A DNA stretch of 64,000 bases from Escherichia phage 121Q (NC_025447.1); one strand, 5' to 3'; positions 16,388 to 58,110 are shown, counted from the first letter of the stretch. Notes: generated by a model not told the origin, from the sequence alone. A program made the numbers and translations.

Positions 16388-16392
16388 AACAA

Positions 16393-17442: not shown

Positions 17443-17449
17443 GGTTTAT

Positions 17450-17986: not shown

Positions 17987-18012
17987 CACCCTCCGATTCT
18001 TTGTGATATAAT
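17983..18012 (+). promoter_or_regulatory. sigma70-like promoter with extended -10
   Basis: TTGACA, 18 nt, TGaTATAAT; sits in the gap before the 18046 gene. Confidence 0.55.
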
Positions 18013-18045
18013 CTCTTTATATTAATTGTAAAGGGTTATATCACA

Positions 18046-19738: not shown

Positions 19739-20229
19739 TGAACCGAAAGTACAGAGAAACTATGAAGTTCGCTAGGGAGTGTTTAGAAGTGTTTGAGTTC
19801 ATCAATGCTCATAAAGATTTACTCCATAGATACATTGCAATCAGTGAGACAGATGACCATAGGTACATATGTTCTCGAATTCAAGATAAGATATATAAGA
19901 TTGTGTTCTCGGAAACATACACAGATACATCTAATTCACTATATGATTTTGCACGTACTGATTACGTTTCATACAAATCTTGGTCTGATAGTATTAAAAT
20001 TGTGCACAAGCAAAATACATTTTATTCTTTTCTTACGGACATTTCCGAAGAAAGTTACTTTCAAAACAGTTTAATTTATACAGAAAAAGAACTCAAAATG
20101 TTATATATTATGTCGTACTTTAAAAAGTACTGCAAATTTAATACATTATCTTTTGAGATTTCTGCAATGAAAGTATTCATTAAAAATGTAAAAGAACTAA
20201 AGAGGGCTTTTAATGTACATAGAAAATGA
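19738..20229 (+). CDS. FQxS-core family protein
   Basis: ATGA overlap start at 19738; core SEESYFQNSLIYT. Confidence 0.6.
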   Translation: MNRKYRETMKFARECLEVFEFINAHKDLLHRYIAISETDDHRYICSRIQDKIYKIVFSETYTDTSNSLYDFARTDYVSYKSWSDSIKIVHKQNTFYSFLTDISEESYFQNSLIYTEKELKMLYIMSYFKKYCKFNTLSFEISAMKVFIKNVKELKRAFNVHRK

Positions 20230-24054: not shown

Positions 24055-24560
24055 GTTTATTAAATGCACGCGAATTAGTTGAGATGTATGAGATTTTGTC
24101 TTCATATAAAAATTCTCATGGAGATGTGATTCTCGACAAAAAGTTCCATGTCAGTGTTGAACATATATCAAATATAGATATGATTTCTTTGGTGGAAAGT
24201 AATAAGTCAGGTCTTGAACGCGATATCATGCGTTTGATTTATATTCCCAAACCATCATATACTAATGATAGTTCAATTAGTAATGAGACATTCATGTATA
24301 GTCCTGGTACGGATTCTACTATAGTATCGCTGTCCAATAAATCAATGGGTACTTTCCAATTCATCTATACCAGTACTGATAACATTGAAGAAATTGAATT
24401 TCAAAACAATACATTAAGTCCATGTAGTAGTGTTATAACCTTTATGTCATATCTATGGTCAACTAAAACAAGTGCTGTTGTATATAGTTCAAATTATACA
24501 CAAGATAGTATTGTTGAATCATATAAAGTTCTAAAGGAATACTATGAAAATAACAAATGA
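24051..24560 (+). CDS. FQxS-core family protein (weak)
   Basis: core IEEIEFQNNTLSP. Confidence 0.5.
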   Translation: MSLLNARELVEMYEILSSYKNSHGDVILDKKFHVSVEHISNIDMISLVESNKSGLERDIMRLIYIPKPSYTNDSSISNETFMYSPGTDSTIVSLSNKSMGTFQFIYTSTDNIEEIEFQNNTLSPCSSVITFMSYLWSTKTSAVVYSSNYTQDSIVESYKVLKEYYENNK

Positions 24561-25125
24561 TTTTATTAAAAGTGTAGTACACCCTATGCTTAGTATTATG
24601 AAAAAAATACAGAATCTACCGGAAGATAACGATTACAAGTTTAATCGTTTTGATTCAGATGTGTTTTGTATTGAAATTGAAATTAATAACAATCGCAATT
24701 TACATTTAAAATTCAAAGAATCGTCAAGTCCGTACTACAACTTTGATATGAATTTTAAAATAGATACTGACATTGAAGAAAACGTAATATCAAATCATAC
24801 TAGCAAAAATGGTTTTATGCATAGAACTACTATGTACAATAATAAAAATAGTATTATATCTAAATGGAATCATCAATTCACTAAAATTTGTGAAATTGAA
24901 TATAGTGATTTTGGTGAAGAGAATTACTTTCAGTTAAGTACAATTCATGAACTTCCACCGTATGATTATGTTAAAACATGGTTTGATATTCATAATATAA
25001 TTGATGATGCAATCAAACTTCCTTTTGGTGTGTCAATATCATATACTGCTCCTAAAACATTTGTTTTTACTGAAGATATGATTATGAAAAAGATATGGGC
25101 AATTATCCCACTTATGATGGATTAA
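24544..25125 (+). CDS. FQxS-core family protein
   Basis: core GEENYFQLSTIHE. Confidence 0.6.
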   Translation: MKITNDFIKSVVHPMLSIMKKIQNLPEDNDYKFNRFDSDVFCIEIEINNNRNLHLKFKESSSPYYNFDMNFKIDTDIEENVISNHTSKNGFMHRTTMYNNKNSIISKWNHQFTKICEIEYSDFGEENYFQLSTIHELPPYDYVKTWFDIHNIIDDAIKLPFGVSISYTAPKTFVFTEDMIMKKIWAIIPLMMD

Positions 25126-35612: not shown

Positions 35613-36207
35613 TACATACTTCCGTTATCTTCGCTTAGGTCTTTCCCTACGTCCGATCCGTGGAAAGTGCGATTCACTCGCTGACCTTGACTATGCATAT
35701 GCATTACATCATGAAGGTGTACAGTATGTATTGGGTGATTATGGTGAATTTGAAGAAACAAATGACAGTACTGGAATTAATGCTGGTGTAGAAAATCTTA
35801 ACAACATTGCTAACAGTTCTCGCCATGACATTGTGTTACAGATTCAAAACTTTATTGAGCAGCACACAGGTAAACGTGTTTGGTGCTATGTCGGTACTGA
35901 TGCACAAATGTCAATTTCATTCGGTAACGATGAAGGATATGTTGCACAGCTTATTATGGATTTTGAATCTGAAGAGAAGTTTTTAGAATTCAAAGAAAAG
36001 ATTATTCAGTCACTTGTTGATATGGGTATCCCCGAAGATAAAATGCCAGAAGTTCAAAACATTGATGAATTTGTTTTGATTCCATCTGATGAGAAATATG
36101 ATGCAATGTTTACTGCCCTTAATATTCCAGGAGTTATTGTGGAGTACTTTGATGATGGTGATGATAGTATCTATATCGATCTAGATGACGATGACGACGA
36201 TGAATAA
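35521..36207 (+). CDS. hypothetical protein with acidic C-terminus
   Basis: ORF ends in DLDDDDDDE; start uncertain (alternative TTG at 35593 after AAGGAG); TNTNTNT low-complexity near N-terminus. Confidence 0.45.
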   Translation: MSIKGWLSFLTITATTFILLRSITLTNTNTNTYFRYLRLGLSLRPIRGKCDSLADLDYAYALHHEGVQYVLGDYGEFEETNDSTGINAGVENLNNIANSSRHDIVLQIQNFIEQHTGKRVWCYVGTDAQMSISFGNDEGYVAQLIMDFESEEKFLEFKEKIIQSLVDMGIPEDKMPEVQNIDEFVLIPSDEKYDAMFTALNIPGVIVEYFDDGDDSIYIDLDDDDDDE

Positions 36208-36214
36208 TGTACAT

Positions 36215-36245
36215 AGCCCGACATAAGTTCGGGCTATTTTTGTAA
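36215..36245 (+). terminator. rho-independent terminator
   Basis: AGCCCGA-cataag-TTCGGGCT hairpin followed by ATTTTTG. Confidence 0.65.
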
Positions 36246-36253
36246 GGGGATAT

Positions 36254-36529
36254 ATGAATTATAAAGTTCTACAATATACATACAGTGTTTTGTTTGATTT
36301 ACATCACAATGGAAGATATCTCAATACAATACGAGAAAACACATTCACTCATACTATCTGGATTAATCACTTAATAATGATACGTGAATATTTTGTTAAT
36401 AGTGAGATAATCATTCGTGGTAAAAAACATAAGATAGAACAAGTTAATAGTTTTGGTGGTAAATTAGTACTATCATTTATAGATAGTAATACTAATGAAA
36501 GATATAGTATAGATTTGGTGGACATATGA
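36254..36529 (+). CDS. TYK-LYDL family small protein (tandem array 1/7)
   Basis: N-terminus MNYKVLQYTYSVLFDL; ~90 aa like its six neighbours. Confidence 0.55.
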   Translation: MNYKVLQYTYSVLFDLHHNGRYLNTIRENTFTHTIWINHLIMIREYFVNSEIIIRGKKHKIEQVNSFGGKLVLSFIDSNTNERYSIDLVDI

Positions 36530-36792
36530 ATTATAAAGATTTCCTACTAACATACAAGATTATTCGAGATTTAGCACACGACAATGATAGCCCTAGTCTA
36601 GAAGACACATGCACTGAAATGATTCATACGATTCGTGGTAAGATTAAAAAAAAATTCAGTACTGTTATTATTGGTGATGACCATGCAGAATTTTCTGATA
36701 TAATCATTAGACGTGATGGTAAAGTTGAGGTTCAGTACTACACTGATTTTGGATTTACCAGTATTCCGTTGGAGATATTCCCTTGGGATTAA
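36526..36792 (+). CDS. TYK-LYDL family small protein (2/7)
   Basis: N-terminus MNYKDFLLTYKIIRDL. Confidence 0.55.
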   Translation: MNYKDFLLTYKIIRDLAHDNDSPSLEDTCTEMIHTIRGKIKKKFSTVIIGDDHAEFSDIIIRRDGKVEVQYYTDFGFTSIPLEIFPWD

Positions 36793-37094
36793 ATTTAAAT
36801 GATATACAATTCACTTATAAGATCCTATATGATTTGTATGATGTATACCTTGTTAGTAACAAAATAGGTTCACATAACCCATACAAAGAACAACCATTTA
36901 TTGATTTATATATTGAGTACTTAGATTCAGTAGGTGAATATATAAAAAAGAATTACAGTACTTTTATCGACGGAAATGATATATTCGAGTTCTCTGGAGT
37001 TAAATCATACAATGGGATTATCCATGTTGAATTTCTTGAAATAACCGATAGGGGATTTATCGAGATTAAAGTTGTGAAGTTGGTGAATTTATAA
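36783..37094 (+). CDS. TYK-LYDL family small protein (3/7)
   Basis: LNDIQFTYKILYDLYD. Confidence 0.55.
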   Translation: MGLNLNDIQFTYKILYDLYDVYLVSNKIGSHNPYKEQPFIDLYIEYLDSVGEYIKKNYSTFIDGNDIFEFSGVKSYNGIIHVEFLEITDRGFIEIKVVKLVNL

Positions 37095-37104
37095 GAGGTT
37101 ACAT

Positions 37105-37416
37105 ATGTTATTAAATGATATACAATTCACATACAAATTTTTGTATATCCAATACGCTACGGTTGATGCTGGAGAATATCTCTACGGTGAAATCTATCGT
37201 TCGGTATGGATAAAGTTTTTGGATGAATTACATGAATATTACCATGATTTGTGTATAGTTCGTGATAATAAAATATACAAATTCCGCGATATTGTTAGTC
37301 ATAGCGGTAAGCTACGATTGGAATTAAGTACTGATAGTGATGTTGATTGGATTGGTGTAAATTTACTGGAGTTGGAGAATGAAAAACAACTTAAAGGAAA
37401 TACAAGTATTTTATAA
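37105..37416 (+). CDS. TYK-LYDL family small protein (4/7)
   Basis: MLLNDIQFTYKFLYIQY. Confidence 0.55.
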   Translation: MLLNDIQFTYKFLYIQYATVDAGEYLYGEIYRSVWIKFLDELHEYYHDLCIVRDNKIYKFRDIVSHSGKLRLELSTDSDVDWIGVNLLELENEKQLKGNTSIL

Positions 37417-37663
37417 ATTCTTATACTTGTCATATGTAAAAGATGAGTACTATGAAAGTGTGTATTATTTTTTATGGCAACATTACCGTACTATAGTAAG
37501 AGATTTATATATAGGAAAATCTATCATATCCAATGGTGAAAAATGTATATGTACTGATGTTGTTAGTTTTAATGGTTCTTTAACACTGTGTTTCAGATGC
37601 GATAATAATAGTGGGTCATTTTCATTAAACGTATATCAGTTAGAAGGAATAAATTTTGAATAA
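37379..37663 (+). CDS. TYK-LYDL family small protein (5/7)
   Basis: LKEIQVFYKFLYLSY; DLYIGKSIIS motif. Confidence 0.55.
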   Translation: MKNNLKEIQVFYKFLYLSYVKDEYYESVYYFLWQHYRTIVRDLYIGKSIISNGEKCICTDVVSFNGSLTLCFRCDNNSGSFSLNVYQLEGINFE

Positions 37664-37856
37664 ATGTCCATATTGTAACAGTACTCAATTAGCTCGTTTC
37701 CGTTTAGATTCAGACTGGGCGACTGGTGCTGGTGATTTCTTCCCTATCAATGATGATGCAGAATACACCGAAGAACAGCACAAAGATTTTGATAAATCAT
37801 GGCGACCTGACATTGAGTGCATTTATTGCCTTAATTGTGAGCGTGTTCATGACTAA
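37656..37856 (+). CDS. C4 zinc-ribbon small protein
   Basis: CPYC near N-terminus and CIYCLNC near C-terminus. Confidence 0.5.
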   Translation: MNKCPYCNSTQLARFRLDSDWATGAGDFFPINDDAEYTEEQHKDFDKSWRPDIECIYCLNCERVHD

Positions 37857-38112
37857 AGCTGAACTAATAGTTCATACATATAAAATGATATCAAGTACTG
37901 AGTTATCATATAGTGCAGATAATCCAGTACTGGATTATTTTGTTGAATTATTGAAAGAGCATTATATTGGTAAATCACTGATTCTTAATAATATTAATTT
38001 CACGGTAAAGGATGTAGCACCTGGAAAAAACGTACTAATAGTATGTGTTACTTCATCTGATAACCCAGTATACCCAATATCAATAATTTTTGAGATATTA
38101 GGAGATTTATGA
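37850..38112 (+). CDS. TYK-LYDL / KYxG-V family small protein (6/7)
   Basis: ATG at 37850 overlapping upstream stop; MTKAELIVHTYKMIS and EHYIGKSLIL. Confidence 0.5.
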
Positions 38113-38399
38113 ATATCATTTTAATGCAGAAAACATATGCTATATTGGTGAAAGATTATTCCATTACTTTCGATTCACAAGAAAGTGCTCTACATAACCT
38201 ATACAAAAACGTAACACAAGAATACAGAAATATGTTTTCTGACTTAGTAGTAGGAAGGTATTTCAGTACTAGAAAATACCCAAAACTTCAAATAGTTGAT
38301 GTTTCTTTTTATTTCAATGGTCATATTACTATTCATAGTTTAGACCAAGATTCAACAACGTACTTAAACTTTTCATTTGATGAGGTAACATTTTTATGA
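38109..38399 (+). CDS. TYK-LYDL family small protein (7/7)
   Basis: MNIILMQKTYAILVKDY. Confidence 0.5.
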   Translation: MNIILMQKTYAILVKDYSITFDSQESALHNLYKNVTQEYRNMFSDLVVGRYFSTRKYPKLQIVDVSFYFNGHITIHSLDQDSTTYLNFSFDEVTFL

Positions 38400-38572
38400 G
38401 AACAGTATTTTTTATCTGGAGTCTTTTTTCATTGGCAGTACTGACAGTATGTGGGATTTGTTTCCTTTCATCAATTAATACTTGGTATATCAATTTACTA
38501 TTTCCATTTGTCGGTGTTGGATTAGGATTTACTTTACATAGTGTATGTAAGGATTACAATGAGAACAAATGA
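38396..38572 (+). CDS. small hydrophobic (membrane) protein, 58 aa
   Basis: Below ORF-track cutoff; ATGA overlap start; translation MRTVFFIWSLFSLAVLTVCGICFLSS... is largely hydrophobic. Confidence 0.35.
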   Translation: MRTVFFIWSLFSLAVLTVCGICFLSSINTWYINLLFPFVGVGLGFTLHSVCKDYNENK

Positions 38573-38837
38573 AGTACTTGTTGCTGAAACAATGAAGATG
38601 ATTTACGATATCACGTCAGCACAGAATATGCCATATCCAACTAAGTCTTTATTGAGGACTGTGTATCTGGGGATAGTACAGGAGTACTACAAATCCAAGC
38701 ACAGAAGCATTATTAGTGTTTATCGTGATTATGAAAGGATTCGTATTTTATTCTGGAACAAGAATCGAGTACGTTCTGAATGTGATCTAGTAGATTTTAA
38801 ATTAGAGAATCTTTATTGCTATAAACAGGGACAATAG
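38559..38837 (+). CDS. hypothetical small protein
   Basis: ATG at 38559 (MRTNEVLV...) in frame with ORF 38541-38837. Confidence 0.45.
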   Translation: MRTNEVLVAETMKMIYDITSAQNMPYPTKSLLRTVYLGIVQEYYKSKHRSIISVYRDYERIRILFWNKNRVRSECDLVDFKLENLYCYKQGQ

Positions 38838-38895
38838 TCTAATTCATGATATAATAATGGGTAAGGAACAATAATTAACACAAGGAGTGTGTGAA

Positions 38896-39624
38896 ATGCT
38901 TGACCGTATCCGTTTCGCTACAGAGATGGCGAATGAATTAAACATGGCAAATTTCCAAATGTTAACATCAGTAATGGCTGAACATGCATGTGCTTATTCT
39001 GTAAGTGGTGTGCAGTGTGGTCAGGAGAATATGTTAGCAGATGTTTATAGTGAAGTACAAAGTAAGCAATATAGTGTAAAGACATATAAGGATAAGTTTG
39101 TTAGTCTTTATATGAACGAAGATATTGCCGAAGACCGCAAATTCACTGATTTTATTATTGAACGCCGAGTATCAGGTGTATCTAATCCTAATGCATCAAG
39201 CGATGAAGTTTTTGCAGAAGTACTGAAAGATATATACGAAAATGAATTAAAAAGTAAGAATCATTACAATGTACGTGAAACTAACACAGTGCTCTTGGGA
39301 TATGATGAAGACGAAGAATACTATTATTTTCGTATGACTGAAGTTCCTTTTGAATACAAATCTCCATATACAACTACAGTGAAAGAATTTACTGAAAAAA
39401 GTAAAAACTTTATGAAGCATGAAGGAAATCGTTGTAGTATAAATGGTTATGACGAAAATGGCATTCACATTTATGAATGGGTTCACCCAAATTGTCAGAC
39501 ATACACTCGTTGCTTGAAAAAACGTTATAATTTAGAAGAGCATGAATCATTCTATTTTAAAGTTAAGAAGCAAGGTTATACTCGCCCCGCCGATTCTGAA
39601 TTGATGGGTATGATATATTTCTAA
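38896..39624 (+). CDS. hypothetical protein
   Basis: AAGGAG 7 nt upstream of ATG at 38896; 242 aa. Confidence 0.55.
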   Translation: MLDRIRFATEMANELNMANFQMLTSVMAEHACAYSVSGVQCGQENMLADVYSEVQSKQYSVKTYKDKFVSLYMNEDIAEDRKFTDFIIERRVSGVSNPNASSDEVFAEVLKDIYENELKSKNHYNVRETNTVLLGYDEDEEYYYFRMTEVPFEYKSPYTTTVKEFTEKSKNFMKHEGNRCSINGYDENGIHIYEWVHPNCQTYTRCLKKRYNLEEHESFYFKVKKQGYTRPADSELMGMIYF

Positions 39625-39634
39625 GGAAACTGCT

Positions 39635-39916
39635 ATGGATTTTTATCTACACACATGGACATACGAACAATATATTACATTATATCTTGAAATTATTAAC
39701 ACAGAACCTAGGTGTGGTTGTTGGTTCGCAGATATCATAAAAGAGTATGCGGACGAATTTGAGTTCGTGTATCTTGGTACTGATATATTTGTAAAAAGTG
39801 TAGGTAAAACCGGACGAATCACTGATATAGATTACGACACTGTTAGTGTGAATTTCTATGTTGATTTTCCTGATGCTGGCGTTGATGGTGTATATTGTCT
39901 TTATGAAATAATTTAA
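39635..39916 (+). CDS. hypothetical small protein
   Basis: 93 aa ORF; minus-strand ORF 39680-39958 judged a shadow. Confidence 0.45.
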   Translation: MDFYLHTWTYEQYITLYLEIINTEPRCGCWFADIIKEYADEFEFVYLGTDIFVKSVGKTGRITDIDYDTVSVNFYVDFPDAGVDGVYCLYEII

Positions 39917-39923
39917 ATTTTTA

Positions 39924-39947
39924 GGCCAGCGTTTGCTGGTCTTTTTT
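39924..39947 (+). terminator. rho-independent terminator
   Basis: CCAGC-gttt-GCTGG hairpin followed by TCTTTTTT. Confidence 0.55.
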
Positions 39948-39960
39948 CGCAGGTACAAAG

Positions 39961-40263
39961 ATGTTCAGTATAGATTTAATTAACAGTACTATCAAAATGT
40001 TGGCAGATTTGGTGAGACAATCCAATGGAACTTTATATTCTGCAATGTATAAAATGTTTGACCGATATATCAAGGATTGTAACATATCATTATATGGACT
40101 TGCTGTTGATATAGACGATTACTATGGAATTAATACTTCATATAAAACAGGAATTTTAATTGGTATTAATATAAAGATGGGGTATCTCCCTTATTACTGT
40201 ATAGGATTACCAGATAATACTTTGGTAGAATATCCAGCCAGTACTATTAAATTAAGAGGATAA
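39961..40263 (+). CDS. hypothetical small protein
   Basis: 100 aa ORF after terminator. Confidence 0.45.
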   Translation: MFSIDLINSTIKMLADLVRQSNGTLYSAMYKMFDRYIKDCNISLYGLAVDIDDYYGINTSYKTGILIGINIKMGYLPYYCIGLPDNTLVEYPASTIKLRG

Positions 40264-40270
40264 AACTAAA

Positions 40271-40849
40271 ATGAATGTATTAGAATTAAGTACTAAGCTG
40301 ATTACTATGCGTAACGAGTGGTACGATTGGTTTTATAATGGTACTGATATGGATTTTTCAAAATATCCATTTATGGAATCAGGATGTGATGCAAGATACC
40401 GCTGGTTGAGCAAAGATTGTTCTGGTTTACATATTCTAGTTGACGATAGTGGTCAGGGAATTATAAAAGATTTACTTCAAGTTGAACAACTCGTCCATGA
40501 TAATTGGTGTGATAACGATCCATACCTTGGAAATATGATTTATGTAAGTGAAGATGATTGCATATTCGTTATCCAGCGTCATGGTAATTCTATGTTTTAT
40601 GTAGCAGACAGCAGTACTCCAGAAGGTGCAGCAGCCGATGGTCTTATGCCTAAGATTGATATATTGGAATTTGGATTACCTGAGCACTTCCAGATTAGTA
40701 CTTTATACGATATTCCACCACTTGAGTTCTTTGAAGAATTTAAATTGTACTACAATGATCTTCAAAAATTGAGTACTGAGAGTCGCCTTGAAATAACCGT
40801 CAAGTACATGGACGGAACGAAATTAACCGATACGGGGATAGAATTTTGA
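40271..40849 (+). CDS. FQxS-core family protein
   Basis: core LPEHFQISTLYD. Confidence 0.55.
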   Translation: MNVLELSTKLITMRNEWYDWFYNGTDMDFSKYPFMESGCDARYRWLSKDCSGLHILVDDSGQGIIKDLLQVEQLVHDNWCDNDPYLGNMIYVSEDDCIFVIQRHGNSMFYVADSSTPEGAAADGLMPKIDILEFGLPEHFQISTLYDIPPLEFFEEFKLYYNDLQKLSTESRLEITVKYMDGTKLTDTGIEF

Positions 40850-41535
40850 TTAAAGATTTAGATAGAATTTTATATGTACTAAGGGGTGTAATTACATTAC
40901 ATCCACAAATCAATCGAATTGAAAGTACATTTCAGTTGGAGTCAAGAGAAACTCCATATTCACATATATCAAATGTAGTTGGTTCACTCAGTACTGAAGA
41001 CTCGTCTTACGATATTTGTGTATGTGAAGTACAACCAAGTTCGGATCTTGGATTTGCTATTTTTGATAAAGAACAAAATCTCATTAGTATGTTTCAGTGC
41101 AATAATCCTTTTTGGAAAACATGCCTGTATCCAGAGTGGGCTATGCTTGATCCAACCAAGAGTACCATTAAAGTTTATGACTCTAAAAATGATGAAGTCG
41201 TTATTGATTTGGATGAGTCAATGTCAGAGGAAGAACACTTTCAGCTAATGATGATGCGTGCTATGCCTGAGTACAATGCAATGATTAACACTGTGCAATA
41301 CATTAAGGATACTATGCCATCATTGCGTACACATGAGTTTTGTCATCCTGTATTGTATGAACATTTGGATTTAGATTTCAGTACTATTAAATTCAAAGAT
41401 AGTATTATAAAATATATTCAAGAAAATGTTAAATTTAATTTCATTAGTACTATGAACAATAATCCAAAAACGAATTTTAGGCATCAGTACAATGAATCTT
41501 TTTCTAATGGTCGTGATACCAGTTGGTGGAAATAA
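40846..41535 (+). CDS. FQxS-core family protein
   Basis: core SEEEHFQLMMMRA. Confidence 0.55.
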   Translation: MIKDLDRILYVLRGVITLHPQINRIESTFQLESRETPYSHISNVVGSLSTEDSSYDICVCEVQPSSDLGFAIFDKEQNLISMFQCNNPFWKTCLYPEWAMLDPTKSTIKVYDSKNDEVVIDLDESMSEEEHFQLMMMRAMPEYNAMINTVQYIKDTMPSLRTHEFCHPVLYEHLDLDFSTIKFKDSIIKYIQENVKFNFISTMNNNPKTNFRHQYNESFSNGRDTSWWK

Positions 41536-41536
41536 T

Positions 41537-41800
41537 ATGAATATCCAAGATAGATTACAATTACTGTACACTATTGAACAGGCTGCTTTTGAACTTGTTC
41601 GAAAAATATCAGATGAACTACCTAAAGGAACTAAAGTTCGTGTACGTGAGATGAATTATTTTTCTGGAGTAATTGAAGAACAAGTACTAACAGTGAATAA
41701 AGTAACATACTATGAATCTGAGTTGTCTATTCAGTGTGAATCGGATGATGGATTAATATCATATTATGGAACTGATGTAGATATAGAGGTAATAAAATGA
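41537..41800 (+). CDS. KYxG-V family small protein
   Basis: ATG at 41537; ELPKGTKVRVRE motif. Confidence 0.45.
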   Translation: MNIQDRLQLLYTIEQAAFELVRKISDELPKGTKVRVREMNYFSGVIEEQVLTVNKVTYYESELSIQCESDDGLISYYGTDVDIEVIK

Positions 41801-42939
41801 CCCTTTTACAAATATATGAAGATTTAATGCACTTATGTAATACAAACGATGCGTTTTTTTATGTGGATCATAAAAGTCCTGCTGGTGGTACGTATCGTGT
41901 ATTCAGTTATCGTCTAGCATCATACACTGATTTCATGCAACCAAATGCGTTGGAAACCCGTGGCTCTATGTGGGAAATTGATGAAGAAGGTGACATGATA
42001 CGTTGTGCAGCACGTACAATGAAAAAGTTCTTCAATGCTTACGAGAATCCTGCTACAATGTTCCCTGCTAACACCACATGCGATGACATTGCGGTAGTTA
42101 TGCCTAAGTTGGATGGTTCGATCATCAGTACTTATCGTGATAATGATGGTGAGATTCGTTGTAAATCACATACTGCATTGTATTCTGACCATGCGATTAA
42201 CAGTACTCGACTTATTAACGAGAACCAGAATTTGTATCAGTACATCGACGAAGCGGAACGTTTAGGTTACACAGTTAATATGGAGTATACAAGCCCAGAG
42301 TACCGAATTGTATTACCATATCAGGTAGAACAACTGTTTGTACTGAACGTTCGACATCGTGTGAGTGGTGAGTTGCTATGTGGTAAAGCACTACGTGATA
42401 AGTTTCCATGCCTTGCACAGTACAGTACTAATATGACCGGAAAAGATATTCATCACACTTTTCCGGTACGAAATACCTTCCGTGAAAGCGTGGAGGAAGT
42501 TCATAAAATGCTTGATATTGAGGGTTTTGTGTGCATCCTAAATAATGGGACAATGTGTAAAATAAAGACTGACTGGTACAGTTCATTACATCTTACAAAA
42601 GATAGTATTATTATTGATTCTCATTTATATGAAGCCGTATTAAATGGTTCAAGTGATGATTTAAAACAATTGTTCAGTACTGATGAATATGCTATGCAAA
42701 AGATATTAAGAATGGAACAATTGGTATTTTCGTGCTATAATGCATTACAAGATGAAGTAGAAAGCTTCGTCAAGGAACACAAGCACTTGGAGCGAAAGGA
42801 ATTCGCAATGAAGGTTCAGGAGTGTTTAACTAATGAACTGAATCGTCAGGGCTTGGCCTTTGCAATGTATAACAATAAGAAAGTTGATTACAAAGAGACT
42901 CTTATAAAATACATGAAAATTGTACTAAAGGATTTTTAG
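41797..42939 (+). CDS. rnlA: RNA ligase 1 (T4 Rnl1-type tRNA repair ligase)
   Basis: N-terminal FFY.D....GGTYRVFSY..ASY, ALE.RG, KFFN..ENP and nucleotidyltransferase KxDGS motif (PKLDGS), all as in T4 Rnl1. Confidence 0.85.
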   Translation: MTLLQIYEDLMHLCNTNDAFFYVDHKSPAGGTYRVFSYRLASYTDFMQPNALETRGSMWEIDEEGDMIRCAARTMKKFFNAYENPATMFPANTTCDDIAVVMPKLDGSIISTYRDNDGEIRCKSHTALYSDHAINSTRLINENQNLYQYIDEAERLGYTVNMEYTSPEYRIVLPYQVEQLFVLNVRHRVSGELLCGKALRDKFPCLAQYSTNMTGKDIHHTFPVRNTFRESVEEVHKMLDIEGFVCILNNGTMCKIKTDWYSSLHLTKDSIIIDSHLYEAVLNGSSDDLKQLFSTDEYAMQKILRMEQLVFSCYNALQDEVESFVKEHKHLERKEFAMKVQECLTNELNRQGLAFAMYNNKKVDYKETLIKYMKIVLKDF

Positions 42940-42966
42940 TACTATCTAGCCTAAGCACAAGGAGAA

Positions 42967-43224
42967 GTGATGGCTAAACCTAAGTATAAAAATGACGGTT
43001 CCCTTTCTCCGACTGAGTTCAGGAAAATACAAGAAGAAATCGATGAATTACAGCACAAACGCTCAATGAAAGGTGTGAAGATAAGTAAGAAACGAATCGA
43101 GAATACCTTCGGATGTAGTAGTACTGAATACAAGAAGAAAAGGAAACCAAAAGGTGTTAAGCCGAGAATACATGATGTAACTCGCTATACATCGAAACGT
43201 GAAAATAAATTTGATCCACTATAA
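42967..43224 (+). CDS. small highly basic protein
   Basis: 85 aa rich in K/R (KKKRKPKGVKPR); minus-strand ORF 42951-43133 judged a shadow. Confidence 0.45.
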   Translation: MMAKPKYKNDGSLSPTEFRKIQEEIDELQHKRSMKGVKISKKRIENTFGCSSTEYKKKRKPKGVKPRIHDVTRYTSKRENKFDPL

Positions 43225-43233
43225 GGAGTTCAT

Positions 43234-43464
43234 ATGAAAGTTGAAGTTCAGCATAGTATTGTTCAGGATATGTCAGTAGTTAAATTTCTTTCTCTGAAAG
43301 ATTACTTCAGATGTATCAAGTTCCTAGAAGAATCTCAATTACAGTGGACCCCATTAAAGTACAGTTCATCCAATGATACAGCTAGTATTCGTTGTGATGA
43401 ATCTGTACTTGTGAAAATCTCCAAACGATTTGGAGTAGGAAAAGTTAATGAGCACAGTAAGTGA
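43234..43464 (+). CDS. hypothetical small protein
   Basis: 76 aa ORF; GGAG RBS. Confidence 0.45.
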   Translation: MKVEVQHSIVQDMSVVKFLSLKDYFRCIKFLEESQLQWTPLKYSSSNDTASIRCDESVLVKISKRFGVGKVNEHSK

Positions 43465-43702
43465 CCTAAAATACTACAACAAAACTGCGGATACGTTTAT
43501 TACTCATTTATATGAAGAATTTAGTCGTATCCGTAAGGAATATACAGGTAAATGTATTTTATATAGTTCTTATCATAGTGGTGGAATTGAAAGTGCTTAC
43601 ATTACTAAAGTGAAGTTTTCTGATGACTATCAATTACTCTTTGAATTAGATGATTGTTTCGTTATTGAAGCTTGTTTGATAGTGGATGTTCTAGATAATT
43701 GA
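43448..43702 (+). CDS. hypothetical small protein
   Basis: 84 aa ORF. Confidence 0.4.
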   Translation: MSTVSDLKYYNKTADTFITHLYEEFSRIRKEYTGKCILYSSYHSGGIESAYITKVKFSDDYQLLFELDDCFVIEACLIVDVLDN

Positions 43703-43708
43703 GGACAT

Positions 43709-44023
43709 ATGAATAAAGAACTTGCATTTGAGAGGATCGAAAAGTTAAAGTACATTGAAAAGGAACTAATAGAATCTGTCGAATCAATGGTCGAAGATTA
43801 CGTTTTCGATTTTAAGAAAACATTGATTGGATGTAAAGTTAAATGCTGGGATCATACAATCAGAGAATGGTTCAGTACTATAATTCTTGATGTTAAAGTA
43901 TCGCGTACTGCTATTGGTAATTTAGTAAATGGTGAATGCTTTGTATACACTGAATACAATAACGGAACAAGAAACCTTTCAAGAGGATGGCACAAACTCG
44001 AAGATGTAGAATTCATTGAGTAA
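43709..44023 (+). CDS. KYxG-V family small protein
   Basis: KKTLIGCKVKCWD motif. Confidence 0.45.
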   Translation: MNKELAFERIEKLKYIEKELIESVESMVEDYVFDFKKTLIGCKVKCWDHTIREWFSTIILDVKVSRTAIGNLVNGECFVYTEYNNGTRNLSRGWHKLEDVEFIE

Positions 44024-44035
44024 CAAGGAGTAATA

Positions 44036-44968
44036 ATGCCAACTATTACACTGACAGTTGGATTACCTGGGTGTGGCAAAACCACATGGGCAGTTCAAGA
44101 AATTAAAAATGCCAAATCGAAGACTATCAACATTAACCGTGATGACATTCGAGAATCAATGGCAGGGTCACATGATGCATACAAATTCAACGACGCTAAT
44201 GAGCAGTACGTAACTAAAATGCAGTTCAGTGCAGCAAATTCAGCAGCAGAGAATGGTTGGAACATCATTGTGTCCGATACGAACCTTAAACAACATTTCC
44301 GTGATGAATGGAAACGTTGGGCTAAAGATAATGAATACGACTACAAAGAAAAGAACTTCTACGAAGATTTCGTACCTAATGAAGATCGTGGTGCAGATGT
44401 TCATGTTTTCTTTAAGATTAAAGAGTTCGTAAAACTTTGTAAGAAACGTAACCTCATGCGTGAGCGTTCAGTACAAGATAATATCATCGACACTATGGCA
44501 GATACGTACTATTATAGTAAGGCCATGCACATTGGTTACTATGGTAATTCACGAGAAGCTGCTGTTATCGTTGATATTGACGGTACTCTTGCTCATAAAT
44601 GGGGTCGCAATCCTTACGATGAAAGTACTGTTCTTCAGGATACACCAGATGAAGAAGTTATTTTGTCTATTATCGCTGAAGCAGTTTTTCATAAACGCAA
44701 GATTATCGTCATGAGTGGGCGTACTGAAGGGTGTCGTGCTGATACCGAACAGTGGCTTAAGAATTGGGGTATTCCTTACGATGCATTGTTTATGCGAGAC
44801 ATAGATGATAAACGTCCCGATGATGTTGTAAAATTCGACCTGTACATGAAAAATGTGGTTGATCATTACGATGTTAAAAAGGTTTATGATGACCGCGATC
44901 AAGTTGTATTCATGTGGCGTAAGCTACTTGGCTTGAAAGTAATGCAAGTTGCAGAAGGAAATTTCTAA
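44036..44968 (+). CDS. pseT: polynucleotide 5'-kinase / 3'-phosphatase
   Basis: N-terminal Walker A GLPGCGKTTW plus NINRDD; C-terminal HAD phosphatase motif VIVDIDGTLA and DDRDQVV; T4 Pnk-like. Confidence 0.85.
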   Translation: MPTITLTVGLPGCGKTTWAVQEIKNAKSKTININRDDIRESMAGSHDAYKFNDANEQYVTKMQFSAANSAAENGWNIIVSDTNLKQHFRDEWKRWAKDNEYDYKEKNFYEDFVPNEDRGADVHVFFKIKEFVKLCKKRNLMRERSVQDNIIDTMADTYYYSKAMHIGYYGNSREAAVIVDIDGTLAHKWGRNPYDESTVLQDTPDEEVILSIIAEAVFHKRKIIVMSGRTEGCRADTEQWLKNWGIPYDALFMRDIDDKRPDDVVKFDLYMKNVVDHYDVKKVYDDRDQVVFMWRKLLGLKVMQVAEGNF

Positions 44969-44972
44969 TACA

Positions 44973-44999
44973 AAAGGGATCATATGTTGGTCCCTTTTT
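44973..44999 (+). terminator. rho-independent terminator (weak stem)
   Basis: AGGGA...TCCCT hairpin followed by TTTTTC. Confidence 0.45.
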
Positions 45000-45017
45000 C
45001 TTTTAAGGTATATTATA

Positions 45018-45194
45018 ATGAATGTAAAAACACAGATGTTGTTACAAAAAGAATACTTAGAAAATATAGAAATGTTCTATAGATTGTCTTTATACGAAAA
45101 TAAAGATAAAAAATATAACTTTTCTAAACAACTAAACACAAGTACTAATGATTATCTATTTTCATCAATGTTTTATGTGAGAGGTTTATTATAA
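45018..45194 (+). CDS. hypothetical small protein
   Basis: Internal ATG at 45018 of ORF 44949-45194, downstream of terminator; weak RBS. Confidence 0.3.
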   Translation: MNVKTQMLLQKEYLENIEMFYRLSLYENKDKKYNFSKQLNTSTNDYLFSSMFYVRGLL

Positions 45195-45454
45195 TGGATA
45201 AATTTCACACAGATATAACACAGATAGGTAATCTTATCAATAGTCTAATTACTGATTTAGAAGAAAAGTATTTAGGTCGAAATGTATACGTAGAAATGTA
45301 TGAAACATATGGTGTTATTGATATGATTTATTACAGTGCATTGAAGTGTGAAATACGTTTAACAGTATGTTTGTTTGAAAAAAATACATTCAACAGAAGT
45401 ACTGCAATTCGCCAAGTTGGAGTTGATGATATAGAATTATACGAGGAACAATGA
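45194..45454 (+). CDS. KYxG-V family small protein
   Basis: LEEKYLGRNVYVEMYETYG. Confidence 0.5.
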   Translation: MDKFHTDITQIGNLINSLITDLEEKYLGRNVYVEMYETYGVIDMIYYSALKCEIRLTVCLFEKNTFNRSTAIRQVGVDDIELYEEQ

Positions 45455-45705
45455 TGTTTGAGCAAGACTTAGAGATATTCAAAAGTCATATTGATTACTT
45501 GACTATATTAGAAAATGATTTAACTACAAAGTACAAAGGTATTCGTGTTCTGTGCTGGTATGATGATTGGGATTATAAACGTGAACTCACTATTGATCGA
45601 ATTTATTTCAGTGACGGTGTACTAAATGTACATGGTGTAAATGATTTTGGTCATTCATATACATATTCTAATAATGCTAAATTTAAAAGGATCTACAATG
45701 AATGA
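45451..45705 (+). CDS. KYxG-V family small protein
   Basis: LTTKYKGIRVLCWYD. Confidence 0.5.
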   Translation: MMFEQDLEIFKSHIDYLTILENDLTTKYKGIRVLCWYDDWDYKRELTIDRIYFSDGVLNVHGVNDFGHSYTYSNNAKFKRIYNE

Positions 45706-46000
45706 ATATTATCATAATTTATTCGATTACATAAAACTAATAGATGATCTTTCTTTCGAATTTCTTAGTACTGAAAAAGTTCTTGAACCTCTCTATTATG
45801 ATTGTATTAGTTCACTATCTTTAGATGAAAAAGAGATATTATCAAATAATTTACCGTCAACCGTCTGTGTAATCAATGGTTCCAAGGCTGTGGTGTCTGA
45901 GGTTAATTTTCATAAATCACTTAATACAATTGTTTACAAGTTCGATAACACTTGGATCAATCATGTAACCAGTAATATTAAATCTGTGAGATTTTTATGA
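45698..46000 (+). CDS. hypothetical small protein
   Basis: ATG at 45698 (MNEYYHN...) overlapping upstream stop. Confidence 0.45.
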   Translation: MNEYYHNLFDYIKLIDDLSFEFLSTEKVLEPLYYDCISSLSLDEKEILSNNLPSTVCVINGSKAVVSEVNFHKSLNTIVYKFDNTWINHVTSNIKSVRFL

Positions 46001-46293
46001 ATATAAAAAAATTATTTGAACAAGTAAATTTATTGTACTGGTGTTCAGACGGTTCAGATAAGGAATATAGTGAAGTTTATTTAGAACTGTTTAGAACTGA
46101 AATTCATTATATTCGAAGATACTTAATTGATAACAAAACTAAAGTACAAGTAAGATACCATAATGGTACTTTAAAGGATGGTATAATTATTGGATTGATA
46201 GTTGCACGATGGTCTAGTAATATTAAAGTTGCAGTAAGATTAATGACTGATGATGGTGTCTACACAATAGAAGCTAGTGAGATTATATATTAA
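45997..46293 (+). CDS. KYxG-V family small protein
   Basis: ATGA overlap start; DNKTKVQVRYHNG. Confidence 0.45.
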   Translation: MNIKKLFEQVNLLYWCSDGSDKEYSEVYLELFRTEIHYIRRYLIDNKTKVQVRYHNGTLKDGIIIGLIVARWSSNIKVAVRLMTDDGVYTIEASEIIY

Positions 46294-46599
46294 ATGGATA
46301 TACAAACATTCAATAAGCTAAAGTACTATGATAATGGTTTTGCATTAATAATTAACGAACTTGATGGGATACCATACGAATATCATAATCAATTAATGAA
46401 GATAGTAAAATGTATATGTGAAGAATTAAAAAGTATGTTTAAAAATGAATATGTTTATGATTTAGGTAATAGTAGCAAAAAACTATACATAAAAAAATTC
46501 TGGGGAACGCATTGTGGTTTAATGGTCGATTTAGGTTTAAGTTTAGACGATAATTCTGAATCATGTTCATTATATATAGATGAAATGCGAATATCATGA
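46294..46599 (+). CDS. hypothetical small protein
   Basis: 101 aa ORF starting immediately after upstream stop. Confidence 0.45.
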   Translation: MDIQTFNKLKYYDNGFALIINELDGIPYEYHNQLMKIVKCICEELKSMFKNEYVYDLGNSSKKLYIKKFWGTHCGLMVDLGLSLDDNSESCSLYIDEMRIS

Positions 46600-46656
46600 G
46601 ACGTATCAGAATTCGGTGATATAATTTGATTACATCACCAATGTGGAGAAGTTGAA

Positions 46657-46983
46657 GTGAATGGTTCGTTTTTAACAATTTTAGAAAAGACATCCGAGAT
46701 GCTTTCTAGTTCGTTAATGCACATTTTCAGTACTAATAATTTATACAATACCCAGGTGTTAGATTCAATTAGTAATAACTATGTGGTAAGTATATCTGAT
46801 GAAATATGTCCATTTAATGCGTATACGAATTATAGTGTAGAAGAGTTTCATATATCCGAGATTCGATGTGGTTTTGGTGCTTGGTTAGTTCTAAATGAAC
46901 GTTCAGGGACGTCTTTATACATCGAAGAAATTGATAAATTTATATACAAAGGAGTAGAATATGTTAACCCCAATCATTCTTAG
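46657..46983 (+). CDS. hypothetical protein
   Basis: 108 aa ORF downstream of GTGATATAAT -10 element near 46614; start codon uncertain. Confidence 0.4.
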   Translation: MNGSFLTILEKTSEMLSSSLMHIFSTNNLYNTQVLDSISNNYVVSISDEICPFNAYTNYSVEEFHISEIRCGFGAWLVLNERSGTSLYIEEIDKFIYKGVEYVNPNHS

Positions 46984-47590
46984 CAGTGCATATGTAATCG
47001 GTATTATTATTTCTGGTATGCTTGCATATAACTATAACAGAAGTGTTATAGGTTATGTAGTACTTGGTACAGTACTAAGTCCAGTGATTGCTATTGGTCT
47101 TCTTGTTATGCTAGGTGAGAAAAATACAAACTTCTTTATTACTAAAGAACTTGATAAAATCACCCCAGCACCAGAAACAGTTATTCCAGAAGTTAAAGAA
47201 GAAGTTAAAGAAGTTGAAGTGCAAATGCAAGTTAAAGTGTATAATACACTTGAAGAAACTGACCCTAAAGTTGTAGTGAATGTAGTTCCAGTCGTTGAAG
47301 ATGTGAAACCAAAAGCTCCTAAAGCACAGAAAAATACTAAAACTGCAAAGAAAGCTCGTTACACTAAAGGTAAGAACAAAGGTAAATCTAAGGATGAACC
47401 ACAACTAGGTGTTCATGACCATACTGCACAAATTGCAACGGCAGCGACCGCAGCAGCAATCGTAACATCACCAATCTACAACAATGATGATTACAGTGAT
47501 TATAGCCGTCACAGCAGTTCTTCCTCTGATTCTTGTTCCTATGATAGCTCTAGTTCTGATTCAAGTTCATCTTCTGGAAGTTGTGATTAA
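46961..47590 (+). CDS. membrane protein with Ser-rich low-complexity C-terminus
   Basis: AAAGGAG RBS; two hydrophobic segments near N-terminus; C-terminal SSSSSDSCSYDSSSSDSSSSSGSCD. Confidence 0.55.
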   Translation: MLTPIILSSAYVIGIIISGMLAYNYNRSVIGYVVLGTVLSPVIAIGLLVMLGEKNTNFFITKELDKITPAPETVIPEVKEEVKEVEVQMQVKVYNTLEETDPKVVVNVVPVVEDVKPKAPKAQKNTKTAKKARYTKGKNKGKSKDEPQLGVHDHTAQIATAATAAAIVTSPIYNNDDYSDYSRHSSSSSDSCSYDSSSSDSSSSSGSCD

Positions 47591-47919
47591 TGTCAATGAA
47601 ACCACTAATTCAACATAATATTTTTTATAGGTCATTATTCAAAATTCAAGATGATTTTTATCAGACGTTGAGTAATGATCTTATAGGTAAAACTGTACGA
47701 TATTCGGAACAATACATCAAACGTATGACAAGTCAGTATATTGACCCTGAATACGAATACGACATTGAACACATTAATCCCAATACTAGAATGAAAATCA
47801 TTGAGATATTTAAGAATGGGAGAACTATAGGTGCTGAAATTGAGTACTTGAATTGTGATTGTTACATAGATACAGAGTTGAGTTTGGATTATCTTGTTTT
47901 AGTGGATGATGAGGAATAA
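47590..47919 (+). CDS. KYxG-V family small protein
   Basis: NDLIGKTVRYSEQY. Confidence 0.5.
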   Translation: MSMKPLIQHNIFYRSLFKIQDDFYQTLSNDLIGKTVRYSEQYIKRMTSQYIDPEYEYDIEHINPNTRMKIIEIFKNGRTIGAEIEYLNCDCYIDTELSLDYLVLVDDEE

Positions 47920-47921
47920 TT

Positions 47922-48137
47922 ATGATAACATTTTTCGCAATATATGGATTTGTAGCATTTGTTACATTTATAACCAACTTTCTAGTACTTAATTGGGGTT
48001 GTTTTAAAGATGAAATCATGATTATCATGAATCTCCAAACAGCAGCACTGATGGCTATTATTTGGCCTGTAACGTTAGTATATATTTTTATTTCACTTAC
48101 CCAAGATATTATTAACAAATATAAGAGAAAGAAATAA
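47922..48137 (+). CDS. small membrane protein
   Basis: 71 aa with two hydrophobic stretches; C-terminal KYKRKK. Confidence 0.5.
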   Translation: MITFFAIYGFVAFVTFITNFLVLNWGCFKDEIMIIMNLQTAALMAIIWPVTLVYIFISLTQDIINKYKRKK

Positions 48138-48388
48138 TGTTCAACAACGACTTATCACATTTGCGATATCTTATGTCTTTGGCTGATGATTTTATAAATG
48201 ATCTGAAGCCAAAATATATTGGTCAAGAAGTACGATTAATAAACTCCAGAGGGTATGGAAAATATATTATTACTGATATGTATATTAGTGGTGGTGAATG
48301 GCGTTTTAAAATTAATACTTATCTTAAAGATGGTTCTTTTGCTGGAACACAAGTTACTAAACACACTAATATTATATGGTTGGAGTAA
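48137..48388 (+). CDS. KYxG-V family small protein
   Basis: LKPKYIGQEVRLIN. Confidence 0.5.
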   Translation: MFNNDLSHLRYLMSLADDFINDLKPKYIGQEVRLINSRGYGKYIITDMYISGGEWRFKINTYLKDGSFAGTQVTKHTNIIWLE

Positions 48389-48390
48389 TA

Positions 48391-49134
48391 ATGAAACATT
48401 TCTTAGAAGTAACCGTACCTGATGATAAAGATTTATACATTGTAGGTGATTTGCATGGTAATGGTAAACTATGGGATGCTACAGTGAAAGAATTTGGTAT
48501 TACACACAATGATTATGTTTTCAGTGTAGGTGATATTATCGACCGTGGAGAACAAAATTCAAAGCTCCTTTTTGAATTTTTGTTCGGAGAAAATCGTTAC
48601 ATGATTGCAGGTAATCATGAGATGATGTGCGTTGATTCGGAAACACTTCGAGATTGGTATCATTGTTGGATAAGTAATGGTGGTGATAAATTCCTTGATG
48701 AAGTTGGAGGAACAGGCATTCAATTCTTTCGTCAGTACTTAAAAGATCTCCCTATGATTATCCAAATCAATCACCGAGGCTTGAAGATTGGGTTAGTTCA
48801 TGCTGGAGTTCCGTTGGAATATACAACATGGGAACGATTTGTTAATGGGACAAAATCACTTAGTGCTGATATAATTGATAAGTGCTTGTGGGATAGGAAA
48901 ACATTCGATTATTGTAGAACGAATAATACCTATTATGCACCTAAGTTAGATGGAGTGCATTGTGTCTTTAGTGGACATACAGCAGTTACTGATCCACTCA
49001 TTTATGGTAATCGCATTTGGATTGATAGTCAGTTCTTGACGGGTGACTTAACTCTCGCTACTCCACAAAGTGGTGGGATGAGATACTTACGTAAAGAAAA
49101 AGATGAATACTCATTCAATCGTTTCAAAAGGTAA
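48391..49134 (+). CDS. Ser/Thr protein phosphatase (PPP family, lambda-phosphatase-like)
   Basis: GDLHGN, GDIIDRGEQN and AGNHE metallophosphatase motifs; GGAG RBS 5 nt upstream. Confidence 0.8.
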   Translation: MKHFLEVTVPDDKDLYIVGDLHGNGKLWDATVKEFGITHNDYVFSVGDIIDRGEQNSKLLFEFLFGENRYMIAGNHEMMCVDSETLRDWYHCWISNGGDKFLDEVGGTGIQFFRQYLKDLPMIIQINHRGLKIGLVHAGVPLEYTTWERFVNGTKSLSADIIDKCLWDRKTFDYCRTNNTYYAPKLDGVHCVFSGHTAVTDPLIYGNRIWIDSQFLTGDLTLATPQSGGMRYLRKEKDEYSFNRFKR

Positions 49135-49139
49135 TAATT

Positions 49140-49409
49140 ATGCATGATGTAGTTAAAAAATATTTGAATGATAGATATATTATGAAAAAATCTATTAATT
49201 CTATCCTAAAAGATCATGCTAATCAAATACGTGAGATTCTATCAAATAAACTTATTGGTTGTTCAGTTGAGTTCAATTACAAAAAGAATGTAGTGAAGAT
49301 TGGAGTTATTAAACGTGTAGTTGCTGTTTATGACCAAAATGTATATGTTGAAATTGAATATGATGGTAAATTATCACAATTAAGTACTGAAGATTTAACA
49401 TTTTTATAA
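49140..49409 (+). CDS. KYxG-V family small protein
   Basis: SNKLIGCSVEFNY. Confidence 0.5.
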   Translation: MHDVVKKYLNDRYIMKKSINSILKDHANQIREILSNKLIGCSVEFNYKKNVVKIGVIKRVVAVYDQNVYVEIEYDGKLSQLSTEDLTFL

Positions 49410-57732: not shown

Positions 57733-58110
57733 TTAACCAGGGATGTTACAATAATACAAATCCCAAGGGTGATATTTCATTTCTCCAGTACTCAATTTAA
57801 TTTTATGAAACTGGAATGATTCGGCAAATGCACTATCATCAATCTTAATACAAAAAGTATTTTTTGCTAAAGTTGGTGCAATCTCTAGTGCAGTTTTAGT
57901 TGCATCTAATCTGATTTTATCTTTATCAAAACTTGTTATAGTTACAAAACGATAAACATTAAAATCAGTGTCGATAAGATCGTAAACACAACTAGAACGT
58001 TGATTAAAGATGTTCAAGTTATATTTCAATTCACCGTTTATATTAGCGGCGGTTACACAAAAGCCGCCGATATTGAATGGTAATTTACCTTGTGCTGCTA
58101 TAGCTTTCAT
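57733..58110 (-). CDS. hypothetical protein (antisense island, gene 2)
   Basis: 125 aa minus-strand ORF with AGAGGAAA RBS; N-terminus QGKLPFNIGGFCVTAANINGE is paralogous to the upstream small ORF. Confidence 0.55.
   Translation of the reverse strand: MKAIAAQGKLPFNIGGFCVTAANINGELKYNLNIFNQRSSCVYDLIDTDFNVYRFVTITSFDKDKIRLDATKTALEIAPTLAKNTFCIKIDDSAFAESFQFHKIKLSTGEMKYHPWDLYYCNIPG

Follow-up and report, generated by a model that had tools for sequence, protein, structure and literature searches.

Two sets of small genes in a 64,000-nucleotide stretch of Escherichia phage 121Q (NC_025447.1; this whole stretch is called the window below) very probably belong to one superfamily. The first set is a tandem array of seven genes at 36254-38399 (family A, genes A1 to A7), and the second consists of similar-sized genes scattered in the same window (set B, each gene named here by its start position). 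Taken as a whole, the data are best explained by a single divergent superfamily of putative binding modules, a reading that we favour with some reserve. The region 36000-39000 is 99.8% identical to that of Escherichia phage vB_EcoM_phAPEC6 and 96-99% identical to those of PBECO4, G17, slurp01 and other Asteriusvirus jumbo phages, placing the window in a phage of this type. Its G+C content is about 32%, and nearly all open reading frames (ORFs) lie on the plus strand. In phAPEC6-type records, each of the paralog genes is annotated as a hypothetical protein. The ORFs listed in a preliminary description of the region were all found on the plus strand at the positions given there, apart from two start corrections: the start of A6 is 37849 instead of 37850, and the gene at 41537 sits inside a longest ORF of 41492-41800.

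The array had been described as seven back-to-back paralogs interrupted by one C4 zinc-ribbon gene, and this layout was recovered. The seven ORFs are almost certainly true paralogs. A1 to A5 cluster by BLASTP in a database of the 142 window proteins (E values of 1e-5 to 7e-7). Seven syntenic loci in further Asteriusvirus phages supplied the profiles of the ortholog groups, and hhalign comparison of these profiles links A1 to A5 with scores of 86-98%. A6 and A7 scored 89-90% in a leave-one-group-out test, in which every BLAST-detectable relative of the tested gene was dropped before scoring. The genes of the array are as follows:

36254-36529, plus strand: A1, 91 amino acids, phAPEC6 gp389c; BLASTP to A5 2e-5, hhalign to A4 98%, leave-one-group-out 82%.
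36526-36792, plus strand: A2, 88 amino acids, gp388c; BLASTP to A3 4e-5, leave-one-group-out 95% (P = 7e-8).
36783-37094, plus strand: A3, 103 amino acids, TTG start, gp387c; BLASTP to A4 7e-7, hhalign 96%.
37105-37416, plus strand: A4, 103 amino acids, gp386c; hhalign to A5 98.5% and to A1 98.3%.
37379-37663, plus strand: A5, 94 amino acids, YIGKS; BLASTP and hhalign links, AlphaFold model.
37656-37856, plus strand: C4 zinc-ribbon gene, 66 amino acids, CxxC...CxxC; non-member that interrupts the array.
37849-38112, plus strand: A6, 87 amino acids, YIGKS; hhalign to A4 70%, leave-one-group-out 89%.
38109-38399, plus strand: A7, 96 amino acids, gp384c; recruited by the A hidden Markov model (HMM) on iteration, leave-one-group-out 90%.

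Neighbouring genes of the array overlap by 4-38 nucleotides (nt) or are separated by a 10-nt gap, and the proteins have 87-103 amino acids. Leftover DNA repeats are found at the 5' ends of A3, A4 and A5 (26 nt, 92% and 77%) and of A1 and A2 (54 nt, 70%). A3 and A4 fall into one PHROG, 21004; the PHROGs of the array family are 21004, 32291, 35943, 33961 and 28826.

For the scattered genes, which had likewise been proposed to share a motif, an hhalign network (50-69%, P at most 1.5e-4, 465 pairs) joins 13592, 41537, 43709, 45194, 45451, 47590, 48137 and 49140. The proposal of a family thus holds for these genes, and less certainly for 45997. In the leave-one-group-out test, most B genes scored 77-96%; the exception among the original B genes is 45194, with 7% in the pooled test. 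Two further genes, 39635 and 43448, are added here.

13592-13900, plus strand: outlying B-type gene, 102 amino acids, KYAGRKV, PHROG 11429; hhalign to 45194 66%, leave-one-group-out 77%.
39635-39916, plus strand: B-type, 93 amino acids, YLGTDI; hhalign to the B profile 97%, leave-one-group-out 89%; added here.
41537-41800, plus strand: B-type, 87 amino acids; recruited by iterative search, leave-one-group-out 77%.
43448-43702, plus strand: B-type, 84 amino acids, YTGKCI; hhalign to the B profile 88% (P = 3e-6), leave-one-group-out 67%; added here.
43709-44023, plus strand: B-type, 104 amino acids, LIGCKV; hhalign to 48137 67%, leave-one-group-out 92%.
45194-45454, plus strand: B-type, 86 amino acids, KYLGRNV; hhalign to 13592 66% and to 48137 52%, recruited by iterative HMM search.
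45451-45705, plus strand: B-type, 84 amino acids, KYKGIRV; leave-one-group-out 94% (P = 2e-7).
45997-46293, plus strand: probable member, 98 amino acids; leave-one-group-out 87%.
47590-47919, plus strand: B-type, 109 amino acids, LIGKTV; hhalign to 48137 69%, leave-one-group-out 84%.
48137-48388, plus strand: B-type and hub of the network, 83 amino acids, KYIGQEV; leave-one-group-out 96% (P = 7e-9), AlphaFold model.
49140-49409, plus strand: B-type, 89 amino acids, KLIGCSV; leave-one-group-out 89%.
2166-2552, plus strand: possible distant member, 128 amino acids; recruited late in iterative search, leave-one-group-out 25%.

Five other small ORFs were rejected as members for their profile scores: 38559-38837 (9-13%), 39961-40263 (16%), 45698-46000 (17-36%), 46294-46599 (8%) and 46657-46983 (below 1%). 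The orthologs of 45997 (UniRef, ph0011 24479-24775, P0044) carry the name Mononegavirus-type SAM-dependent 2'-O-MTase domain-containing protein; this looks like an annotation artefact, since no such Pfam domain was found in the gene or its orthologs.

To compare the two sets cleanly, two array proteins of phages JNE01 and Turkey5 that were common to both profiles were removed before hhalign, and further sequences were then excluded stepwise:

A versus B, the two shared proteins removed: 86%, P = 4.8e-6, 72 columns.
A versus B, all cross-BLAST-detectable sequences also removed: 72%, P = 3.4e-5, 69 columns.
A versus B, the whole 48137 ortholog group also removed: 53%, P = 1.3e-4, 50 columns.

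The aligned columns of the non-overlapping profiles are colinear, which bears out the earlier suggestion that the sets may be one superfamily: profile-profile similarity was found both among the array members and between A and B. Reversed or column-shuffled controls of the same comparison gave at most 0.4% (P at least 0.17), and three other paralog families of the window gave at most 3.3%. An iterative HMM search from 48137 (E < 1e-3), in a database of which two-thirds were reversed or shuffled decoys, converged on every array gene and the scattered set without recruiting a decoy. With a B-only HMM, 25 non-B small proteins preceded the first decoy, and 10 of the 25 were A-profile proteins from the window or related phages. 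Single proteins also bridge the sets. A6 is intermediate, with hhalign scores of 57% to the A profile and 49% to the B profile, A7 reaches 65% against the B profile, and the metagenomic A member P0062 matches 48137 directly by BLASTP (pairwise E = 3e-5).

The motifs quoted previously were all found (YIGKS in 37379 and 37849, EEKYLGRNVYV, TTKYKGIRVLCW and NKLIGCSVEF). Of the 19 candidate members, 11 carry the pattern [YFL][ILVKAT]G..[VIL], which starts at residues 26-46 or lies within them; other window proteins have it 0.09 times per 100 amino acids. This aromatic-aliphatic-Gly-basic turn is degenerate in A1 to A4 and in A7. Divergent metagenomic A members, obtained from an exhaustive search of 1.84 billion representative proteins, carry a clear F-I-G-K as in the B set.

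The AlphaFold models of the two sets have the same layout. The A5 model (predicted local distance difference test, pLDDT, 89; predicted template modelling score, pTM, 0.76) has helices at residues 5-21 and 26-44 followed by four strands, and the best 48137 model (pLDDT 79) has one helix at residues 5-27 followed by strands. In both, the G-K motif follows the last helix and precedes the first strand, and the order of elements is equal (helix, G-K turn, beta-meander), the B model being moderately confident. When this moderately confident B model was searched against BFVD, its top match was the 121Q ortholog of A5 (E = 5.6e-3, template modelling score, TM, 0.58-0.61). The A5 model matched a 96-amino-acid protein of slurp01, probably the A7 ortholog, with a TM of 0.78, and small RaK2 proteins weakly. 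The common fold would thus comprise one or two N-terminal helices, an aromatic-aliphatic-Gly-Lys/Arg turn after the last helix, and a four-stranded SH3/Tudor-like beta-meander, to which the turn leads and which would pack on the helices. The beta half is matched partly by DUF4222 and DUF1653, small SH3-like phage proteins (Foldseek TM about 0.45 query-normalised and about 0.65 target-normalised, E about 0.02). However, these have about 60 amino acids, lack the N-terminal helices and show no detected sequence similarity to the paralogs. The equal layout and the cross-match in BFVD would fit a shared fold, at the moderate confidence of the B model.

The link between A and B is statistically moderate, not overwhelming, and several results weigh against a single superfamily. 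Iterative searches seeded by 37105 or 45451 never merge the two sets but remain in one of them, which places the link near the detection limit. Without the ortholog group of the hub 48137 the score drops to the 53% listed above, the strictest exclusion applied. The 48137 model is unstable, the other four models having a pLDDT of 43-72, and deserves moderate confidence only. The gene 45997 is weak against the separate profiles (A 7%, B 0.7%), its support coming only from the leave-one-group-out test, and its membership is probable but less secure than that of the rest. In an alternative reading, A and B would be two unrelated families of small alpha+beta proteins that are alike through AT-rich composition, size and a generic helix-plus-hairpin architecture. 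PHROGs, a remote-homology clustering, leaves nearly each gene in a family of its own, and a first A-versus-B hhalign with few sequences gave 34%. We nevertheless consider two unrelated families unlikely. In the clean comparisons, P was between 5e-6 and 1e-4 for alignments of 50-72 colinear columns, far from the controls, which included real families. Additionally, the motif takes the same structural position in both sets, the B model has an A member as its top match, and A6 scores alike against both profiles. JNE01 and Turkey5 moreover have A-type genes at B-region positions, one of them the position of 45997.

The superfamily was found in a narrow range of phages. Among 5.8 billion proteins, word-seeded searches found 37 matches for A and 22 for B, all of Asteriusvirus type, and the 22 matches of the exhaustive search were of the same type except for four long proteins. 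Two of these, P0066 and P0073, are repeat artefacts (a tandem-repeat translation and an Ig-domain protein, respectively), and the other two, P0070 and P0072, resemble repeat artefacts by their many short matched stretches. In the 84 kb flanking the region in phAPEC6, none of 181 ORFs matched the family HMMs below E = 3e-3. Upstream of the window, phAPEC6 carries about 80 further small same-strand genes (318400-348854, gp469c-gp548c) up to RCC1-like genes, and none is in the family. Members were also found at syntenic positions in the RaK2-like Klebsiella phage RCIP0023, with E values of 1.6e-8 to 6.5e-4 for the A and B HMMs; the positional counterpart of 41537 matches the B HMM at 1.6e-8. The gene layout is the same there, and the polynucleotide kinase is 64% identical to that of the window. 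The zinc-ribbon gene is 71% identical to its RCIP0023 counterpart (14064-14264 of the compared locus). Its evolution is far slower than that of the flanking paralogs, which BLAST no longer detects between the jumbo phages of E. coli and Klebsiella. Synteny of both the members and the zinc ribbon indicates that the arrangement is older than the split of the two genera. In metagenomic contigs, the gene order is identical.

Protein identity between paralogs is 15-31%, which speaks against a recent expansion; recent duplicates with high nucleotide identity were not found, only the short 5' DNA repeats. We propose that the superfamily arose by old tandem duplications, A1 to A7 being one cluster of duplicates. 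The B-type copies lie scattered over the 11 kb that follow, between genes of RNA repair and other accessory genes. Divergence is faster in the family orthologs than in neighbouring genes, with a median identity to phages A4 and JNE01 of 40% compared to 75-83% (p about 0.02). Copy number also varies: five paralogs precede the zinc ribbon in the window, in G17, A4 and ph0011 and in metagenomic contigs, and three do so in JNE01 and Turkey5. In WPEC5 and Turkey3, one gene of 312 nt (19764-20075 and 19773-20084 of the compared loci), only 34% identical to 43709, takes the place of 43448 and 43709. Judged from the sequences, this replacement looks like a cassette swap, and the adjacent polynucleotide kinase is still 94% identical. 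The ratio of nonsynonymous to synonymous substitution rates (dN/dS) of the family genes has a median of about 0.2 (range 0.04-0.62), which indicates that the genes are functional. Gene-wide positive selection was not detected by dN/dS in the four phages compared. Other insertions near the locus are a 1485-nt ORF found only in ph0011 (15781-17265, between the counterparts of 38837 and 38887) and, in phage A4, putative HNH endonuclease genes upstream (5530-5907 and 7843-8151).

With regard to function, searches of Pfam, NCBIfam and PDB by sequence gave no match, and the PHROGs function labels gave nothing usable. Across the paralogs, conserved polar residues of catalytic type were not found, and conservation is confined to core and turn residues. 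The proteins are acidic (median isoelectric point 5.0), which argues against direct nucleic-acid binding. The table of phAPEC6 virion proteins identified by mass spectrometry contains none of gp348-gp548, and the array corresponds to gp384c-gp389c (PMC7247149). Virion-associated proteins of that phage include gp347 and the PhoH-like gp341c (PMC7247149). The minus-strand gene 57733-58110, the sole sizeable one in the window, would correspond to gp347 by position, strand and size, and window positions 62165-63604 are listed with it in connection with gp347 and gp341c.

The superfamily would accordingly consist of small cytoplasmic proteins (83-109 amino acids) of RaK2-like jumbo phages, mostly acidic and of alpha+beta type. 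Their fold would serve as a non-enzymatic scaffold, and the products are not virion components. Since core and turn are conserved and surfaces differ between paralogs, each paralog would bind a different partner, of the host or of the phage, in early takeover or counter-defence. Our tentative proposal, for which we claim less than even chances, is that the paralogs are non-enzymatic binding modules made before virion assembly, with one partner per paralog. Some of the data count against this picture. Early expression may be supposed from gene layout alone. Compared to neighbouring genes, dN/dS is not significantly higher in three of the four phages (p = 0.09-0.18), the remaining one being phage A4 (p = 0.002, n = 4); a strong arms race is thus not shown.

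Two more specific roles were considered. In the first, a C-terminal KOW/Tudor-type barrel would attach the paralogs to the host RNA polymerase beta subunit or to the ribosome and redirect gene expression. The G-K-x-V turn resembles the Gly-Lys signature of KOW domains, and one B member touches Pfam KOW with E = 0.1. On the other hand, the model has four strands instead of five, array members give no match, and Pfam KOW (PF00467) and CarD_TRCF are not matched significantly. There was also no significant sequence match of the paralogs to the CarD/Mfd RNA polymerase-interacting domain, the UvrD/PcrA C-terminal domain, NusG KOW or EF-P domain I. Whereas CarD/NusG-type barrels have five strands, the paralogs are predicted to have four, with a helical hairpin packed on the sheet, and they are acidic. 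Docking of this kind therefore seems quite unlikely to us. The second role is internal to the phage: the paralogs would be adaptors for replication, assembly or chaperone machinery, for example for the nearby RNA ligase, polynucleotide kinase and phosphatase. The genes of RnlA, PseT, the Ser/Thr phosphatase and DNA ligase are interspersed with B members, an arrangement kept in the Klebsiella phage, and the family is under purifying selection. However, the orthologs are far more diverged than these enzymes, whole cassettes are swapped beside a strongly conserved polynucleotide kinase, and copy number upstream of the zinc ribbon ranges from three to five. Such divergence, swapping and copy-number change would be unusual for obligate partners of conserved enzymes, and we regard this role as very unlikely. 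That the ORFs are chance reading frames or decaying duplicates is hardly credible: they are small and without database annotation, and A5 is unannotated in the phAPEC6 record, but ORF length and order are kept across phages at 30-60% protein identity and in metagenomic contigs, dN/dS has the range given above, and the A5 model is confident.

The array and the scattered members are part of a long block in which small genes follow each other closely on one strand and which also contains genes for Dam methylase, RNA ligase 1, polynucleotide kinase, Ser/Thr phosphatase and DNA ligase; the 41537 gene is directly upstream of RNA ligase 1. The other features of the block are:

36213-36237, plus strand: terminator-like GC hairpin with T-run just 5' of the array, an annotated terminator in phage G17.
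38396-38572, plus strand: predicted membrane protein of 58 amino acids at the array end, non-member; its position is kept in seven of seven Asteriusvirus loci.
39923-39942, plus strand: terminator-like hairpin directly after the 39635 member.
44972-44998, plus strand: third such hairpin of the region.

The ribosome-binding site and ATG of A1 follow within 17 nt of the first hairpin, and 39635 is the last gene ahead of the second. As the array lies between two terminator-like hairpins, it is probably co-transcribed and translationally coupled, as far as sequence can tell. After each of the three hairpins, the ribosome-binding site of the next gene comes within about 20 nt, leaving no room for a promoter. 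Rather than ending transcription units, the hairpins may stabilise RNA, take part in its processing or act as leaky terminators. A scan for sigma-70 promoters gave no information (100 sites compared to 101 expected). The phAPEC6 entry in GenBank leaves A5, the zinc ribbon and the 58-amino-acid membrane protein unannotated, whereas other Asteriusvirus records annotate them; it gives A6 a longer start, by which A6 overlaps the zinc ribbon. Compared with Pfam Lar_restr_allev (PF14354), the zinc ribbon gave E = 0.19 and 12.4 bits, below the cut-off of 28.6.

Further paralogs occupy the window, the first third of which consists mostly of paralog arrays. The LGTxxQE family has six paralogs of about 63-88 amino acids (104, 316, 1743, 1928, 14857 and 15053, within 104-2194 and 14857-15244) that cluster by BLASTP at E < 1e-3; its hhalign score to the A/B family is at most 0.5%. 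A ten-member family of about 75-140 amino acids extends over 771-19341 (genes 771 to 18979) and a twelve-member family of about 146-194 amino acids over 7046-20229 (genes 7046 to 19726), many of them in tandem. Further paralogs occur as two smaller pairs, 2901/3734 and 7838/16679. The LGTxxQE, ten-member and twelve-member families were ruled out as kin of the A/B family by the hhalign scores given above.

It is known that jumbo phages carry paralog families (PMC3622015, PMC7247149). Like the present family, these are tandem as well as dispersed, of unknown function, with relatives only within one phage lineage, and located in non-structural regions. In the literature, we found general statements on jumbo-phage paralogs and no description of the A/B family. 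Sequence comparison would thus newly unite a family that PHROGs splits into about 15 tiny ones, give it a predicted fold and trace it to a second genus. Large eukaryotic DNA viruses carry multigene families or 'genomic accordions', such as the multigene families of African swine fever virus and the host-range families of poxviruses. These share with the paralogs clusters in accessory regions, fast divergence compared to the core, copy-number changes and cassette swaps. Unlike genomic accordions, the paralogs have no recent, highly similar duplicates, all pairs being below 31% identity, and their gene-wide dN/dS is about 0.2.

More than 80% of the genes in these 350-kb phages are without known function, and databases list this family as about 15 unrelated orphans. 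Recognising about 18 genes in one 47-kb stretch as a single fold family reduces the number of unknowns and defines which genes to include when screening by deletion or for interactions. The surroundings of the RNA-repair genes appear as an old, continually reshuffled accessory locus common to jumbo phages of E. coli and of Klebsiella, both of them candidates for use in therapy. By analogy, and as an idea that we think unlikely to hold, the roughly 18 paralogs might be diversified, phage-invented Tudor/KOW-like docking modules, each on a different host machine (RNA polymerase, ribosome) or immune effector. If true, they would represent a modular anti-host toolkit of RaK2-like jumbo phages, akin to the multigene families found in large DNA viruses of eukaryotes. 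If the paralogs do bind different host targets, they would serve as a compact model for the diversification of binding modules in phages.

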